From a virus (Duplodnaviria > Heunggongvirae > Uroviricota > Caudoviricetes), in the IMG/VR virus record IMGVR_UViG_2563366947_000002: a stretch of DNA of 64,000 nucleotides. The stretch is one strand, 5' to 3'. Of this stretch, positions 1,558 to 7,083 are shown one piece after another. Positions within the stretch are counted from its first letter, which is position 1. The number at the start of each line of letters is the position of its first letter. Under the pieces are notes generated by a model that saw only the letters and a list, made by a program, of their open reading frames with translations, searched no databases and was not told the origin of the DNA. The position numbers were made by a program, and so were the translations under genes.

Positions 1558-2325
1558 TCACCCCATAGATATCGAGGTTTCGGTAATAATACGTTTTGCG
1601 TCCAACTCCCATGCTGTGATCACGTCTGCAATCACACTTATCGGCGCTTGTGTGGCATAAATACGCTCTTCTCCAATTGGTGCTGAAACATCCGTAAAGC
1701 CGACTTCTTTGGCATCCTGTATCGAGCAAATCAGCGGGACCGGGACACGAACAAGGTGAGTGGTTGCTTCAAATTGTGTACCTGTCATCAGGCGAAGCCG
1801 TGCGCCCAGCGAATTACACATCAGACTCATGGTCGCTTTATCAGTTGCCATTAACGTAACGTCATACGTCAGAATGGCCTGGGTGTATTCCAGTTCTGCT
1901 AAAGGCATTCCGGTATCCGGTTCGCAAAAACTGGCTACTTTTTTGCGGTCAATCTGCTGATCATCGTTGATATAATTGATATCCATAGTGCGTGAGATAT
2001 TGACCAGGGGGAGAGCATCCCGGTTAATGTTCTGGTTTTCAGGTTTTCTCCCTTGCCCGGCATTTGCGCGACGAACTGCTTTAAGAAACTCGATCGCATT
2101 GTCGAAACGGGCCACATAGACACGCTCTGCTGGTGGACGATTCAGGAATGACGCAAAGCGTTTTTCTTCCGGCGCGGGGGCCACAAGTAAGATATCAGAA
2201 AAAATGTTGCTGATTAGCGTCGCAAACGCGTTATCCACGTTTTCAAAGCCCGTGGTCTGGAATTTTCCTGTGCGTGAGGTTTGCCATTCACCTGTTCGCG
2301 CCAGGAGGGTTTTATTTGAAGTCAT
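1558..2325 (-). CDS. hypothetical phage tail/baseplate protein
   Basis: 255-aa ORF, same operon, 4-bp spacing/overlap with neighbours. Confidence 0.4.
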   Translation of the reverse strand: MTSNKTLLARTGEWQTSRTGKFQTTGFENVDNAFATLISNIFSDILLVAPAPEEKRFASFLNRPPAERVYVARFDNAIEFLKAVRRANAGQGRKPENQNINRDALPLVNISRTMDINYINDDQQIDRKKVASFCEPDTGMPLAELEYTQAILTYDVTLMATDKATMSLMCNSLGARLRLMTGTQFEATTHLVRVPVPLICSIQDAKEVGFTDVSAPIGEERIYATQAPISVIADVITAWELDAKRIITETSISMG

Positions 2326-3125
2326 TCGATCACTCCGTTTTGAGTCGTATCAAAATTCCTGGCAGGTATGCAGTAGTAAAGCGAACCAACATGCTGTGTG
2401 CCGTAGCTAAAAATACGGTGCACGTACCACCAGCGGCGCGCTACGCCGTTTACCATCTCTTCATTCCATTCAAGAATTGAGCCGACGGGGACGTTATTTG
2501 CTGCAATACGCAGAATCAGAACATCATCGGTTAAGCCATCCTGCTCACCGTCTGCGTCAATCGCATGGAAAGAGTCACGCCCGTCAGGGTTATCCAGCAC
2601 ATAAACGATTTCAGGTTCCTGGTAAGTCAGTTCGCGTTGGTTGTTATCCAGTTCAGTGAATGACTCTTCTCCTGTTTCGTCGCTGACTACCCCATATGTG
2701 CCAACATCTGGTCGATATAAGAGAGCCTGAAACGCGTCTGGGCTGGATTCAATAATCAGCATCCAGTCTGCGCGGATTTGGTCGTTAAAGGCTTTATGCC
2801 CGTTATAGCGTGCTTTTAGCTGTGGAGTTGATTCTCTGCCAGCCAGGGAAGGTGGAAGTATGGCTATATCTGATTCGCCAGCATCCGGAGTAAGGCCACC
2901 GTTGCTATCAGCAAAATTATCATGGCTATCAGCTTTGGCGGCGGGTTGCTCTTCCAGAATGCTGAATGAATCCGAACCGGTATTGCCATGTTCCGGCGCG
3001 CCTCCTGCATTCACTTCAATCGGCGCTGGCGTTTCTCTCTGCGTGCTGTCATGTTCTGACTCCTTACTTGCCAGGTTTGCATCGTCAGCAAACCATTCGT
3101 CAAAACGGCCCATAAGCATCCTCAA
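2322..3125 (-). CDS. hypothetical phage structural protein with acidic N-terminal region
   Basis: 267-aa ORF, first gene of minus-strand operon, overlaps next gene by 4 bp. Confidence 0.4.
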   Translation of the reverse strand: MRMLMGRFDEWFADDANLASKESEHDSTQRETPAPIEVNAGGAPEHGNTGSDSFSILEEQPAAKADSHDNFADSNGGLTPDAGESDIAILPPSLAGRESTPQLKARYNGHKAFNDQIRADWMLIIESSPDAFQALLYRPDVGTYGVVSDETGEESFTELDNNQRELTYQEPEIVYVLDNPDGRDSFHAIDADGEQDGLTDDVLILRIAANNVPVGSILEWNEEMVNGVARRWWYVHRIFSYGTQHVGSLYYCIPARNFDTTQNGVIE

Positions 3126-3275
3126 AGGTCGATCTGTCAGGTATCGAAAGGAAGATTTTCGGGAGATTGTGATTTTGGATGAAGGAGGGGAAATTCATAA
3201 AATGCACTTGCGCACAGTGCGACGGTGCGCTATAGTTATGGCATTCGGTAATCATCACGGAGGATCAAATGACTA

Positions 3276-3578
3276 ATGACCAAAAAAATTAACATAAAGG
3301 ATTTCAGGGATGCGTGGCTTGATGATTTTTTTGAATTTTCAACACCACATAGAAAGATACCTCCTGATATTCATATGACATTGTCACGGAAGTTGGACAT
3401 TATCAATGCCGCAACTACCTGTAAGGATTTAAGATCACCACCAGGCAATCGGTATGAGGAACTGTCAGGGAAGCTAAATGGCTATTCATCAGTAAGGGTG
3501 AATAAGCAATATAGGTTAATTTTTAAGTGGGTTAACGGAAAGGCCGAGGACTTGTATCTCGACCCTCACAAATACTAA
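3276..3578 (+). CDS. higB: HigB-type toxin (RelE/ParE superfamily)
   Basis: 100 aa; C-terminal YRLIFKWVNGKAEDLYLDPHKY matches HigB killer-protein pattern; followed by HigA-type HTH gene. Confidence 0.7.
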   Translation: MTKKINIKDFRDAWLDDFFEFSTPHRKIPPDIHMTLSRKLDIINAATTCKDLRSPPGNRYEELSGKLNGYSSVRVNKQYRLIFKWVNGKAEDLYLDPHKY

Positions 3579-3648
3579 AACAGATACCCGGTTACGGACC
3601 GGGTTCTGACCAGAGTCCACTTAATACGCACGCTAGTAAGGGCAAAAA

Positions 3649-3987
3649 ATGAAACAGGCAACCAGAAAACCGACGACCGTAGGTGATATCCTGCTGTACG
3701 AATACCTGGAGCCATTAGAGCTGAAGATCAACGAGTTAGCAGAAATACTTCATGTTCATCGTAACACCGTAAGTGCTCTTGTTAATAATAATCGTAAGCT
3801 AACGATGGATATGGCATATCGCCTGGCAAAAGCATTCGATACTTCTGTAGATTTTTGGATTAATCTTCAGACCGCAGTAGATCTGTGGGAAGTCGAAAAT
3901 GATATGCGCGTTCAGGAAGAGTTAAGTCGTATCAATACTGCTGAAAAATTTATTTCTCAGCGTAACCTGAATAAAAAAGCAGCCTGA
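3649..3987 (+). CDS. higA: HigA-type antitoxin (XRE-family HTH)
   Basis: 112 aa; VGDILLYEYLEPLELKINELAEILHVHRNTVSALVNNNRKLTMDMAYRLAKAF matches antidote-protein HTH pattern; downstream of higB. Confidence 0.7.
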   Translation: MKQATRKPTTVGDILLYEYLEPLELKINELAEILHVHRNTVSALVNNNRKLTMDMAYRLAKAFDTSVDFWINLQTAVDLWEVENDMRVQEELSRINTAEKFISQRNLNKKAA

Positions 3988-4006
3988 TATAGTAAAACAC
4001 ATACAA

Positions 4007-4038
4007 AAAGCCCACTTAGCAAGTGGGCTTTCCTTTGT
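4007..4038 (+). terminator. rho-independent terminator after higA
   Basis: AAAGCCCACTT-agc-AAGTGGGCTTT hairpin followed by T-rich tract. Confidence 0.6.
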
Positions 4039-4043
4039 AATTA

Positions 4044-4403
4044 ATGAACATTAAACCTATCCGTACAGAACAAGATTATGAGGCCGCACTGCGTGCGGTC
4101 GAACCGATGTTCGATAACGAACCGGAAATGAATACTCCGGAAGGTGATTTCTTTGAGGTTATGAGTCTTCTCATTGAGGAGTACGAGAAGAAACATTACC
4201 CAATTGAGCCACCATCACCTATTGAGGCCATTAAATTCCGTATGGAACAGCAAGGGCTGACCGTGAAGGATCTGGAACCGGCAATTGGTAAGTCAAACCG
4301 TGTTTACGAAGTGCTTAATGGGACACGAAATTTGACGTTACCTATGATTCGTCGTTTACATGCCCAGTTTGGTATTCCACTGGAAAGTCTGGTTGGTGTT
4401 TAA
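4044..4403 (+). CDS. second HigA-family antitoxin-like HTH protein
   Basis: 119 aa; N-terminal IRTEQDYEAAL and C-terminal NGTRNLTLPMIRRLHAQFGIP HTH resemble E. coli K-12 type HigA antitoxins; no obvious cognate toxin directly upstream. Confidence 0.5.
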   Translation: MNIKPIRTEQDYEAALRAVEPMFDNEPEMNTPEGDFFEVMSLLIEEYEKKHYPIEPPSPIEAIKFRMEQQGLTVKDLEPAIGKSNRVYEVLNGTRNLTLPMIRRLHAQFGIPLESLVGV

Positions 4404-4453
4404 GTTTGGCGGTCTGGAGGACCGCTTTTTATCTAAAATAAAAATTAGAAGGT

Positions 4454-5203
4454 TTGATAGCTTGTATGGGCAAAAATTCATCAACAGAAAACACATCTAC
4501 AATTGACTCAATCAAGGGCACAATGGATGAAGCCATAAAAGATAAATTATTTAATAAATTATTTGCATATGTGGTGGTTTCATTTTTTGTCGTTAATTGG
4601 CAAGAAATACTAATTTTGTTTAAATCTAAATATGATATATACACAACACTGTCTATAGTATGGGTAGGGGATAAATATCAAATCCCTTATTTTGGAACCT
4701 TCATTGTATCTCCGTTTTTAGCTCACTTTGTTATGCCGTTTATATATGGCACTATTGCGTCCATAGTAATGCCTTATATTACTATGCGTATATCAAAACT
4801 AACTGGTAGAAATTATGCGCAAATAAGATACATTGACCATGAATTTGACTCAGAAGAGAAAGCAAGAGTAAAGGCGTTACTGAGAAACCTAAAGAAAAAA
4901 GAGGAAGAGCTTTTAAAATTAGAGGAACAAATAGAAGGTCAACAAAAAATACTGAATACAATCGAAGAAAAGAAGAGAGAGATTGAGAGTGCCAGAGTGG
5001 CTCTGTATCACGGTATAAAAGTAATTGTTGATATATATAAAGCAAAAGATAAAAGGATTTCCACCAAAGAAGATTTTGCCGATTTATTAAAAGCAATTGA
5101 AGGAAGTGATTTTTATAAAGACACTGGGTTGTGGGGTATTAATAATTTAATAGATGACGTGGAGACAATATATGAGTCTCAATCGACATCAAAGGACAAG
5201 TAA
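4454..5203 (+). CDS. AT-rich membrane/coiled-coil protein of unknown function
   Basis: 249-aa ORF, markedly AT-rich versus surroundings, hydrophobic N-terminal half, charged coiled-coil C-terminal half; likely start at a downstream in-frame Met (MGKNSS...). Confidence 0.45.
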   Translation: MIACMGKNSSTENTSTIDSIKGTMDEAIKDKLFNKLFAYVVVSFFVVNWQEILILFKSKYDIYTTLSIVWVGDKYQIPYFGTFIVSPFLAHFVMPFIYGTIASIVMPYITMRISKLTGRNYAQIRYIDHEFDSEEKARVKALLRNLKKKEEELLKLEEQIEGQQKILNTIEEKKREIESARVALYHGIKVIVDIYKAKDKRISTKEDFADLLKAIEGSDFYKDTGLWGINNLIDDVETIYESQSTSKDK

Positions 5204-5206
5204 TAT

Positions 5207-5233
5207 AAAAGGCGGGATAACCGCCTTTGTTGT
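5207..5233. terminator. bidirectional terminator between convergent genes
   Basis: GGCGG-gataa-CCGCC hairpin flanked by A-run and T-run. Confidence 0.6.
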
Positions 5234-5236
5234 AAA

Positions 5237-6433
5237 TTAAGAACCTTTCTTCACATACTCCATAAACATTTTTTCAGCTTGCTCAGGTGACGTTCCTGCC
5301 ATGACAAGCGCATCAATGAACGCCTGCTTCTTCAGTGCGAACTGATCGGCAAGGCGTTGCTGAAGCTCCTTGTTTTTCTGTTTCTCACGTTGCAAGGCCG
5401 CTTCTTTTGCTGCCGCCCGTTTTTTCTGTGCGTCTGACAACTTTCTGGCTTTGGTCAATTGGTCACGTAGCTTGTCAATTTTGCCGTTGTCCTTTGCCAG
5501 TTTTGTGCTTAAAGCGGCCTGGCGCTTCTGATAGAGCCTCCATTCGCGCTTGGCAGCGTCAACGTTTGTTTTACTGTTGCGATTGCGATTAAACTCCCTC
5601 TCGTCTTCTTTTGAGAAGTGTTTGGTTGTACGGCGGCGATCGTCACCAAATGCAATTTGCGTTGCGGCCTTTTGTAACGCACGAGCAATACTCATTTGCC
5701 AACTAGCGGACTGTAACCGCGTCATTGAGTGGATCACGTGTTTACAGGCGACGCCTTGTAGCTTAGGGTTACGAACTTTTGGATAGGCGTATTCTTTTGG
5801 CGGGGCCAGGGCAAAGTTACCCGCAGTAGCGATGTAACGATACCAGTATTGATGACGACCACAGTCACAATCGAAAGACACCCGCCCGGCGCACAGTGAT
5901 TTAGTGATTTTCAGAGCTGATTTATCGTCTTCTGCGATGTCATCGACCATCTGATCCCATTCTTCAAAGCGTATCCGGACGATATGGTGCTGGTGGACGG
6001 ATATATCCGATGCTTCTACGCGGATATTAATCACGTTGTGGCGAAGAGATACGGGTGTAGCTCTTTTGATACCAGATCCGTCATCCACGGCGTTATTTGC
6101 ACGCTTAATATCGATTGCTTGGCTGGATGCCACCAGCTGGGCGTATGTGATGCCAGCCGTCTTGCTGTCATATTTTTCGCGTGTTTTACTCCGTAGCTTT
6201 TCGAAACCTTTCAGGTCGTCTCGCGTGAAGAACGTGCCGCCTTTTTTCTTCCCTAACTTGAGAATATCTTCGGCGGATTTGTTCCTCAGTCTACCTGGCG
6301 TCAGCGTCCGGTGAGCTTGTCGGCGCTTACGGGTTTGTTCTTTCCTGATAAGGTCGAATAAACGCGTGAAGTCCTTAGAGGACAGGCCGTCAGTGATATA
6401 GCGCCCGTCCTGGTTTTTCAGGAAATCAGGCAT
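5237..6433 (-). CDS. hypothetical protein with SWIM-like zinc finger and coiled-coil C-terminus
   Basis: 398 aa; CDCGRHQYWYRY...ACKHV resembles CxC...CxH SWIM motif; overlaps upstream 109-aa gene by 8 bp. Confidence 0.45.
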   Translation of the reverse strand: MPDFLKNQDGRYITDGLSSKDFTRLFDLIRKEQTRKRRQAHRTLTPGRLRNKSAEDILKLGKKKGGTFFTRDDLKGFEKLRSKTREKYDSKTAGITYAQLVASSQAIDIKRANNAVDDGSGIKRATPVSLRHNVINIRVEASDISVHQHHIVRIRFEEWDQMVDDIAEDDKSALKITKSLCAGRVSFDCDCGRHQYWYRYIATAGNFALAPPKEYAYPKVRNPKLQGVACKHVIHSMTRLQSASWQMSIARALQKAATQIAFGDDRRRTTKHFSKEDEREFNRNRNSKTNVDAAKREWRLYQKRQAALSTKLAKDNGKIDKLRDQLTKARKLSDAQKKRAAAKEAALQREKQKNKELQQRLADQFALKKQAFIDALVMAGTSPEQAEKMFMEYVKKGS

Positions 6434-6755: not shown

Positions 6756-6948
6756 AACAAAGCCTCTCAGTCATAACCTGGGGGAAACTGTATGCAGGGT
6801 GTGAAATGCGAGAAACAGACAGGCCACCAGTTCAGGGGGATGTGGTTCATAAATTCCCTCACTGGTGACAAGTGACTTTCATTAATCTTTATGCGGGGGC
6901 CAGCTTCATTTGCTGGCATTAGATTAAAAATTAAACGGAGTGAATGAC

Positions 6949-7083
6949 ATGGATGTTATCTTCGAATTATTAATGCTAATTGATCTGTTTATGAACGCTT
7001 CATTGACCACTCAAATACTCGCGTCAATATTTTTGTTACTCTTCTACCTGGTATTGAGGGAGTTAACAAAGCTACTAATGTGA
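6949..7083 (+). CDS. small hydrophobic peptide (44 aa), unannotated in ORF track
   Basis: ATG with GGAG 8 nt upstream; MDVIFELLMLIDLFMNASLTTQILASIFLLLFYLVLRELTKLLM; stop abuts stop of convergent gene. Confidence 0.3.
   Translation: MDVIFELLMLIDLFMNASLTTQILASIFLLLFYLVLRELTKLLM

Follow-up and report, generated by a model that had tools for sequence, protein, structure and literature searches.

Positions 3276 to 5203 of a 64,000-nucleotide stretch of Caudoviricetes DNA (IMG/VR record IMGVR_UViG_2563366947_000002), hereafter the window, carry four genes, all on the + strand and at the coordinates already given in a list of open reading frames (ORFs) and in an earlier note made from the letters alone. 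Two of the four encode HigA antitoxins. The best phage match to the region is phage D6 (95% identity), whose orf70-73 are annotated in turn as a RelE-family toxin, HigA, HigA and a hypothetical protein, flanked by homologs of P1 genes 7 and 25. By this likeness, the window is a D6-like (P1-family) phage-plasmid. Why should two HigA genes stand in a row? We consider it likely that the region is a modular accessory-gene hotspot of D6-like phage-plasmids, in which a swap of higBA cassettes stranded the second antitoxin gene, ORF3, and in which ORF4 is independent. The annotated oddity in D6 and its relatives is then explained as cassette replacement, a modest result by itself: the feature is real but would be mostly ordinary mobile-element mosaicism. 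The genes and the cassette in question are as follows (aa, amino acids; nt, nucleotides).

3276..3578, + strand: ORF1, HigB toxin, RelE/ParE superfamily, "plasmid killer"/GraT type (100 aa; PF05015, phrog_3066, PDB 6F8S_B)
3649..3987, + strand: ORF2, cognate HigA antitoxin, YbaQ-like (112 aa; TIGR02607 equivalog, PDB 2EBY)
4044..4403, + strand: ORF3, probable stranded K-12/YgjM-type HigA antitoxin (119 aa; PDB 5IFG_B match; PADLOC PD-Lambda-2_B, positions 1-119 only)
4466..5203, + strand: ORF4, predicted protein of two membrane helices and a coiled coil (phrog_8191, E 4.6e-112; hydropathy; AF2 pLDDT 85; alternative TTG start at 4454)
3176..4036, + strand: swapped cassette of promoter region, higB, higA and terminator (from the L002 alignment; siblings of the cognate type hold a promoter and a PF09907 higB there)
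3204..3236, + strand: candidate higBA promoter/operator (palindrome GCACT-N7-AGTGC at 3204-3220; -35-like TTGCGC at 3208-3213; -10-like TATAGT at 3231-3236; picked out by eye)
4007..4031, no strand assigned: terminator hairpin closing the higBA cassette (12 nt upstream of the ORF3 ATG; fold -17.9 kcal/mol, z -4.9; U-tract stronger on the - strand)

Sequence related to the region was found in 122 plasmids of PLSDB, and the four genes are kept in >100 plasmids. Related sequence is also present in 102 of 5426 complete E. coli genomes, each time on a plasmid and never more than once per genome.

The earlier note had called the first two genes a canonical higB-higA pair, and profile searches agree. 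ORF1 matches PF05015 along its entire length (profile positions 1-91 of 91; E 4.4e-35; 120.5 bits against a cut-off of 27) and falls in phrog_3066, "toxin of TA system"; among solved structures, it comes closest to the toxin chain of PDB 6F8S (6F8S_B, E 2.8e-14). ORF2 scores 102.5 bits against TIGR02607 (cut-off 47.7) and is ~77% identical to E. coli YbaQ (PDB 2EBY, E 1e-53). The genes run from toxin to antitoxin with 70 nt between them and are followed by the terminator. Upstream, the candidate palindrome at 3204-3220 is also listed as a hairpin, and the -35-like and -10-like hexamers fall below the consensus threshold of the promoter scan. Together, ORF1 and ORF2 would make up a complete, self-regulated toxin-antitoxin (TA) module of type II, in which HigB would be a RelE-fold, ribosome-dependent mRNase and HigA a helix-turn-helix (HTH) antitoxin and repressor. 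Judging from the family, the module would be a second addiction module of the plasmid prophage. The higBA addiction module of D6-like plasmids has been noted in the literature (PMC6799933).

The pair is most like the GraTA or "plasmid killer" HigBA family (PF05015 plus TIGR02607; Pseudomonas putida GraTA, PDB 6F8S; E. coli YbaQ, PDB 2EBY): both proteins pass the respective model cut-offs, and the toxin gene comes first. It differs from that family in lying on a phage-plasmid rather than a chromosome, whereas most E. coli chromosomes retain ybaQ without the toxin. Of 5426 complete E. coli genomes, ~4800 have a ybaQ-like sequence in the chromosome, but the upstream RelE/ParE toxin was also matched in only ~470 records. 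Hence, most E. coli strains carry ybaQ as a chromosomal orphan antitoxin, and chromosomal YbaQ might blunt HigB addiction by this phage-plasmid.

Two small features overlap the start of higB. A 7-codon mini-ORF (ATG ACT AAT GAC CAA AAA AAT TAA; 3269-3292) starts 7 nt 5' of the higB ATG, out of frame with it; the mini-ORF lies nearer to the GAGGA Shine-Dalgarno sequence than higB does and could affect higB translation. At 3269-3277, overlapping the higB start codon, is the 9-mer AAATGACTA, identical to the "-22" box of LP26, a late promoter of P1. We set this match aside as probably due to chance: on neither strand does a -10 hexamer follow it at the right spacing, and ~0.5 chance matches are expected in 64 kb.

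ORF3 is a HigA of another kind. With Pfam, we detected only a C-terminal HTH_3 domain, barely over the cut-off. ORF3 also matches E. coli K-12 HigA/YgjM (PDB 5IFG_B; E 1.2e-7), with residues 6-112 aligned to chain residues 24-132 at ~32% identity. ORF3 and ORF2 are accordingly members of different HigA families, and the partners of the ORF3 family are PF09907 HigB toxins. The 56 nt 5' of ORF3 contain no toxin ORF, only the terminator, so the earlier note was right that a second, different HigA lacks a toxin directly upstream. Five siblings (L002, L010, L016, L017 and L018; L numbers denote the loci compared) do have an adjacent upstream PF09907 HigB gene that is absent from the window. The window thus has an orphan antitoxin and not a complete PF09907 module.

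The closest well-known system is the K-12 HigB-HigA pair (YgjN-YgjM; PDB 5IFG, 6KML). Like YgjM, ORF3 has an N-terminal toxin-binding part and a C-terminal HTH and aligns over its full length; in the siblings, the ORF3 homolog is preceded by a PF09907 HigB, toxin first and 4 bp apart. Unlike the K-12 locus, the window has no toxin, no promoter with palindromes and no Shine-Dalgarno sequence, and ORF3 is 119 aa long versus 138 aa. The L002 toxin matches K-12 HigB at E 1.1e-7 with 28% identity. The K-12 HigA sequence used for these identity figures agrees with the 5IFG alignment. At ~28-32% identity to the K-12 pair, ORF3 would not be expected to cross-neutralize the K-12 chromosomal toxin. Homologs of ORF3 of 119 aa and 75-92% identity are widespread, some of them on megabase-sized contigs of other Enterobacterales, and host targets outside E. 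coli are possible.

How ORF3 came to lack a toxin can be read from the siblings. pGMI14-002_2 (L002) aligns to window positions 3000-3175 (93.8%) and 4037-5400 (99.0%) and does not align to 3176-4036. At the place of 3176-4036, L002 carries a promoter and a gene for a 100-aa PF09907 HigB (WP_021551810; E 3.3e-34) that ends 4 bp before the ORF3 homolog. The window ORF3 protein and the L002 antitoxin are one residue apart (S41/C41). Since a PF09907 toxin precedes a near-identical antitoxin in the siblings, we conclude that ORF3 is the antitoxin of a PF09907 higBA pair whose toxin was replaced here.

The junction upstream of ORF3 bears the same history. At cognate-type loci, GGAGTAAATC precedes the ORF3 ATG and gives it a Shine-Dalgarno sequence within the last codons of the toxin gene. 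At every orphan-type locus examined, the truncated one included, the ATG is instead preceded by the identical hairpin and CCTTTGTAATTA; that this junction is the same everywhere argues for a single ancestral event. The L002 promoter contains two TCCCA-N3/4-TGGGA palindromes, TCCCAGCATGGGAC and GTCCCATGTTGGGA, which may serve as operators. Searching the 64-kb window for palindromes of this type yielded one match with 1 mismatch, inside a gene, versus 1.46 expected by chance. With this result at chance level, we rejected the idea that ORF3 has its operator at some other place in the window, such as upstream of ORF4. In the proposed event, one ancestral recombination would have removed the toxin of ORF3 along with its palindrome-bearing promoter and its ribosome-binding site and put the PF05015 higBA there instead, ending 7 nt before the ORF3 start codon. 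The window itself is a recombinant, its ORF3-ORF4 part being 99% identical to L002.

Which pair came first? The same toxin-ORF3 pair is found on a different plasmid beside c1 repressor and integrase genes, at 86% nucleotide identity and without ORF4, and ORF3 alleles in a cognate context are the more diverse (86-100% identity). Other PF09907 higBA cassettes occupy the equivalent slot in a more divergent D6-like element (L021) and in a second phage-plasmid backbone (L025). The diversity of the cognate alleles and the presence of these other cassettes in the slot favor the PF09907 pair as the older occupant.

In PLSDB, ORF3-related sequence occurs in three states: with its toxin (n = 21), intact behind higBA as in the window (n = 18) and cut behind higBA (n = ~75). 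The cut form retains only the first 182 nt, with a breakpoint common to all (window position 4225), and is accompanied by a different ORF4 allele. One antitoxin is thereby available in a natural series (cognate pair, stranded, truncated) that suits two questions, namely, the role of orphan antitoxins in plasmid-plasmid competition and the rate at which stranded antitoxins decay.

Is ORF3 still used? Since the commonest sibling lineage lacks an intact copy, ORF3 is dispensable. In the window, there is no toxin in cis, no sibling-type palindrome and no promoter of its own, and a terminator lies immediately upstream; ORF3 is hence most likely a weakly expressed leftover. The ratio of nonsynonymous to synonymous substitutions (dN/dS) in ORF3 is 0.02-0.14 across all comparisons, orphan versus orphan included. 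Orphan alleles can be close to cognate ones, however: 1 synonymous change separates L005 from L017, and 2 separate L011 from L002. Because of these near-identical alleles, and because the window is a recombinant, the low dN/dS cannot be credited to selection in the orphan state; recombination with cognate copies refreshes the gene.

Several observations weigh against regarding ORF3 as a mere remnant of the swap in an otherwise independent set of genes. The truncated lineage is one event that spread clonally and not repeated independent decay. Ser41 is common to four orphan loci (the window, D6, L006 and L019) and was seen in no cognate locus; even among these four alleles ORF3 is intact, with a dN/dS of 0.06-0.10 that rests on 2-3 nonsynonymous and 8-12 synonymous differences. 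This low ratio hints at retained function. As the hairpin at 4007-4031 has a weak U-tract on the + strand, ORF3 could be expressed by transcripts that read through from the higBA promoter, and the AU-rich leader might permit translation without a Shine-Dalgarno sequence. Finally, an ORF4-family gene lies directly 3' of a TA cassette in two different phage-plasmid backbones, which may mean a functional link that is not captured here.

What would an expressed ORF3 act upon? Because it is one residue away from the L002 antitoxin, any ORF3 protein made should still neutralize the L002 toxin. Of 5426 complete E. coli genomes, 19 contain the sibling-type PF09907 toxin, on plasmids only and on no chromosome. 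In E. coli, the only close target of ORF3 would then be the toxin of sibling phage-plasmids rather than one of the host. The earlier note had suggested an anti-addiction decoy against a host toxin. For E. coli, the host target drops out of that proposal, as the toxin is confined to plasmids and K-12 HigB is only 28% identical; the narrower sibling-plasmid target is possible, though unproven.

In that narrower form, ORF3 would have been retained as an anti-addiction or cross-immunity factor, enabling its plasmid, which also has a PF05015 higBA of its own, to displace incompatible siblings that carry the PF09907 higBA without postsegregational killing, but not vice versa. The single S41/C41 difference implies that ORF3 should bind the toxin of such siblings, and the restriction of this toxin to E. 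coli plasmids fits. No complete E. coli genome carries two copies of the locus, as expected if such plasmids exclude each other, and ORF3 is intact in 18 plasmids with the low dN/dS given above. The concept of anti-addiction is also established; chromosomal ccd reportedly acts in this way against F-plasmid ccd. Like such orphan antitoxins, ORF3 lacks a linked toxin and is nearly identical to the antitoxin of a competing element. Unlike them, it lies on a plasmid rather than a chromosome, can be traced to a cassette replacement and lacks expression signals; its protective effect is only putative. ORF3 has neither a Shine-Dalgarno sequence nor a promoter and sits behind a terminator of -17.9 kcal/mol, the most abundant lineage (~75 plasmids) is clearly successful with a truncated copy, and the near identity of orphan and cognate alleles (L005/L017, L011/L002) means that recombination can explain the low dN/dS. 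We regard retention for anti-addiction as doubtful, although it is the alternative that we take most seriously. Orphan antitoxins have also been described in E. coli lineages (PMC10790755).

A different role, in phage counterdefense, was raised by PADLOC, in which PD-Lambda-2_B is matched by ORF3 at E 3.8e-43 and PD-Lambda-2_A by the sibling toxin at E 1e-41. In PD-lambda-2 (Vassallo et al. 2022, PMC9519451), component A is HigB-like, component B joins a HigA-like HTH to an ImmA/IrrE peptidase at the C terminus and component C is a relative of a P4 antitoxin. Of the 402 positions in the PD-Lambda-2_B model, ORF3 spans 1-119 and no more, and the best 120 ORF3 homologs listed are 113-134 aa long. 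Among the PADLOC models, ORF1 matches no PD-Lambda-2_A model and ORF4 matches none at all. Membership in PD-lambda-2 was rejected: ORF3 has no fused peptidase, and component C is absent. ORF3 and the sibling toxin do share a wider HigB/HigA-like clade with PD-lambda-2, but the window lacks components A and C and ORF3 lacks the peptidase part of B. The relationship is a kinship of family, not of system.

Could ORF3 nonetheless be an orphan antitoxin that counters abortive infection by a host HigB-type or PD-lambda-2-type system? The two PADLOC matches are in line with this, ORF3 corresponding to the N-terminal HigA-like part of B, as are the homologs on megabase-sized contigs of other Enterobacterales. 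There is, moreover, a paper on phage orphan antitoxin-like counterdefense (10.1101/2024.07.11.602962). However, ORF3 is antisense to the tail genes and behind a terminator, no lytic-phase promoter for it was seen, and it lacks the very peptidase domain by which PD-lambda-2B acts. The history of the cassette swap accounts for ORF3 without any function. We give the counterdefense explanation almost no credence and prefer the stranding of ORF3 by the higBA swap.

ORF4 is best considered in its own right, together with the two hairpins at the edges of its cassette.

4408..4426, + strand: terminator hairpin after ORF3, bounding the ORF4 cassette on the left (kept across D6-like ORF3 loci, even those without ORF4)
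5208..5228, no strand assigned: bidirectional terminator hairpin separating ORF4 from the convergent gene 25 homolog (fold -15.4 kcal/mol, z -5.1)

The earlier note described the product as an AT-rich membrane protein of 249 aa with a coiled-coil tail. Its character was well judged: the G+C content is 32%, versus 47% in the window as a whole and 49-50% in the tail genes on either side; hydropathy analysis gives two hydrophobic segments, with centers near residues 42 and 90; and an AF2 model from 46 sequences (pLDDT 85) has a single continuous helix at residues 83-194 followed by a small helical head. (An earlier model from 13 sequences was poor, with a pLDDT of 64.) Its length was not: in NCBI annotation, siblings use the ATG equivalent to 4466 (245 aa) and not TTG 4454 (249 aa), and ATG 4466 is the more likely start.

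Family searches were uninformative as to function. ORF4 has no match in Pfam, NCBIfam or PADLOC, and in PHROGs it matches phrog_8191, "unknown function." When 46 family members were compared to the family libraries, matches were scattered and of low count (1-2 members for most families and never more than 5 of the 46), and we read them as coiled-coil noise. Foldseek searches of the viral and PDB libraries gave no significant fold match (E > 0.3). The top PDB matches were NaK channels (E > 3), to which we attach no weight, as the slightly filter-like "WVGD" is not conserved in remote relatives. Lacking a significant sequence or fold match, ORF4 was rejected as a member of a known membrane defense, exclusion or holin family.

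The family is nonetheless sizable and old. Searching 1.8 billion representative proteins with a profile brought up 83 relatives (E <= 1e-3), mostly of 190-380 aa and matched over most of their length. Distinct ORF4 alleles differ by a dS of 0.36-0.81, with a dN/dS of 0.17-0.31, in plasmids that are otherwise ~94% identical. Positive selection was not seen, the ratio being in this range in both halves of the gene. The alleles are thus old, functional and exchanged as cassettes. At the edges of the cassette are two similar GC hairpins, GGCGGTCTGGAGGACCGC (4408-4426) and GGCGGGATAACCGCC (5208-5228), and siblings without ORF4 (L005 and L017) have a hybrid hairpin, GGCGGTCTGTATGACCGCCTTTGTTGT, just after ORF3; this hybrid suggests gain or loss of the cassette by recombination across the hairpins. 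On a Klebsiella grimontii chromosome (L007), a 44-45% identical homolog follows umuDC-like genes in the same position relative to two neighbors (360 and 109 aa), which we assign as gene 25 and 26 homologs by size and position only. Eleven contexts of ORF4 relatives were sampled by hand. Among them are another D6-like element, whose higBA is of a third type; a second phage-plasmid backbone, in which higBA or tacAT lies upstream; a prophage region of the lambdoid type; genomic islands, in one case close to an AAA_13 ATPase gene; and a site between housekeeping genes.

From these data, ORF4 would be a stand-alone, moron-like gene; its product would be anchored in the inner membrane by two transmembrane helices and carry a small helical head on a long coiled-coil stalk. 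Its position, base composition, architecture and allelic diversity lead us to guess, with modest confidence, that the prophage expresses it for exclusion of, or defense against, other phages or mobile elements. Membrane exclusion proteins encoded by prophage morons include T4 Imm, P22 SieA/SieB and HK97 gp15. ORF4 resembles them as a small inner membrane protein whose gene is AT rich, bounded by terminators and opposite the tail genes of a temperate element; it differs in having a long cytoplasmic coiled coil, and no sequence or fold similarity to them was found. The family as a whole (phrog_8191 and remote relatives) is uncharacterized. Its moron-like positions in phage-plasmids and prophages and its very old allelic diversity make it a reasonable candidate for exclusion and defense screens.

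Do ORF3 and ORF4 work together? The earlier note had proposed that the last two genes form a regulator-effector pair. Such a pair, or an antitoxin-toxin pair, is suggested by their adjacency on one strand, by the HTH of ORF3 and by the membrane nature of ORF4, which could be toxic. Yet each gene occurs without the other: ORF3 stands without ORF4 in L005 and L017, and ORF4 relatives stand without intact ORF3 in L003 (where ORF3 is truncated), L007, L022, L028, L031 and L033. The hairpin at 4408-4426 separates the two genes, and neither an inverted repeat nor a palindrome like those of the L002 promoter was found in 4400-4470. Where the toxin is present, ORF3 is directly downstream of it as its partner, and proteins of this type partner PF09907 toxins wherever a partner exists. 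The proposal of a pair is therefore not supported, and we judge it very improbable.

A broader association, of ORF4 with the TA slot, has more to recommend it. In D6-like backbones, at least 3 higBA cassettes lie upstream of an ORF4-family gene: the PF05015 type, the L002 type and a K-12-like type (139-aa HigA). The same slot of the second phage-plasmid backbone holds either a K-12-like higBA (L025) or tacAT (L023 and L030). The slot loci compared with the window are these.

L021, 4204-5738: D6-like element
L025, 4221-5708: second phage-plasmid backbone, K-12-like higBA
L023, 3781-5714: second phage-plasmid backbone, tacAT

The slot and the ORF4-family gene might then be a three-part unit, such as a TA-gated membrane effector of abortive infection or exclusion with interchangeable TA cassettes. 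The gene lies directly after the TA cassette in both backbones (window, L002 and L021 in the D6-like one; L025, L023 and L030 in the second), and tripartite TA-derived defense systems exist, e.g., PD-lambda-2 and CmdTAC (PMC9519451). However, ORF4 relatives also have umuDC as neighbor (L007) or stand alone (L022, L028, L031 and L033), as in the lambdoid-type prophage region, the genomic islands and the site between housekeeping genes. In addition, the TA partner is freely swapped, and terminators separate the units. The position of ORF4-family genes downstream of swappable TA cassettes in two backbones is noteworthy, but colocation in a shared hotspot is the simpler explanation, and we think a three-part unit quite unlikely. 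A bolder proposal treats the slot between genes 7 and 25 as a conserved two-part conflict module of phage-plasmids: an ORF4-family exclusion or abortive-infection effector, of a new prophage-encoded kind, with ancient alleles kept by recombination, and a swappable TA whose stranded antitoxin, ORF3, is kept as an anti-addiction weapon against siblings with the older higBA. This we hold to be unlikely as well, if somewhat less so than the three-part unit. Our preferred interpretation remains a hotspot of independent cassettes.

The genes on either side of the four place this hotspot within a P1-type tail operon.

2322..3125, - strand: left flank, homolog of P1 tail gene 7 (D6 orf69, annotated "similar to P1 gene 7"; start annotated in siblings at ~3113)
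5237..6433, - strand: right flank, homolog of P1 tail gene 25 (D6 orf74, annotated "similar to P1 gene 25"; 57% identity to P1 gp25 by tblastn)

In P1, genes 25 and 7 are only 3 bp apart, and hence the island came into the tail operon within the D6 lineage, in antisense orientation. The hotspot would consist of three independent units inserted antisense between genes 25 and 7. Each unit is closed by a terminator-like hairpin, at 4007-4031 (ORF2), 4408-4426 (ORF3) and 5208-5228 (ORF4); the first and last of these fold far better than shuffled sequence (z about -5). A search of positions 2800-5600 on both strands against Rfam gave no match at E <= 0.1.

Genes 26-25-7-24-6-5 are contiguous in P1 (L014, 4001-5950), and in the window the island (3126-5236) splits this operon from the opposite strand. 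Terminator-like hairpins are also present on the - strand at 5228-5208, 4033-4005 and 3604-3586. With the island and these hairpins in between, the gene 7-24-6-5 block must either have its own promoter in 3126-3275 or depend on read-through.

A further gene annotated "HigA family addiction module antitoxin" is located just past the gene 26 homolog in several siblings (L004, 5391-5443; L005, 4549-4599; L016, 5310-5365). The equivalent region of the window, about 6756-7083, has short unannotated ORFs only. This looks like a second variable TA slot nearby, beyond the gene 26 homolog.

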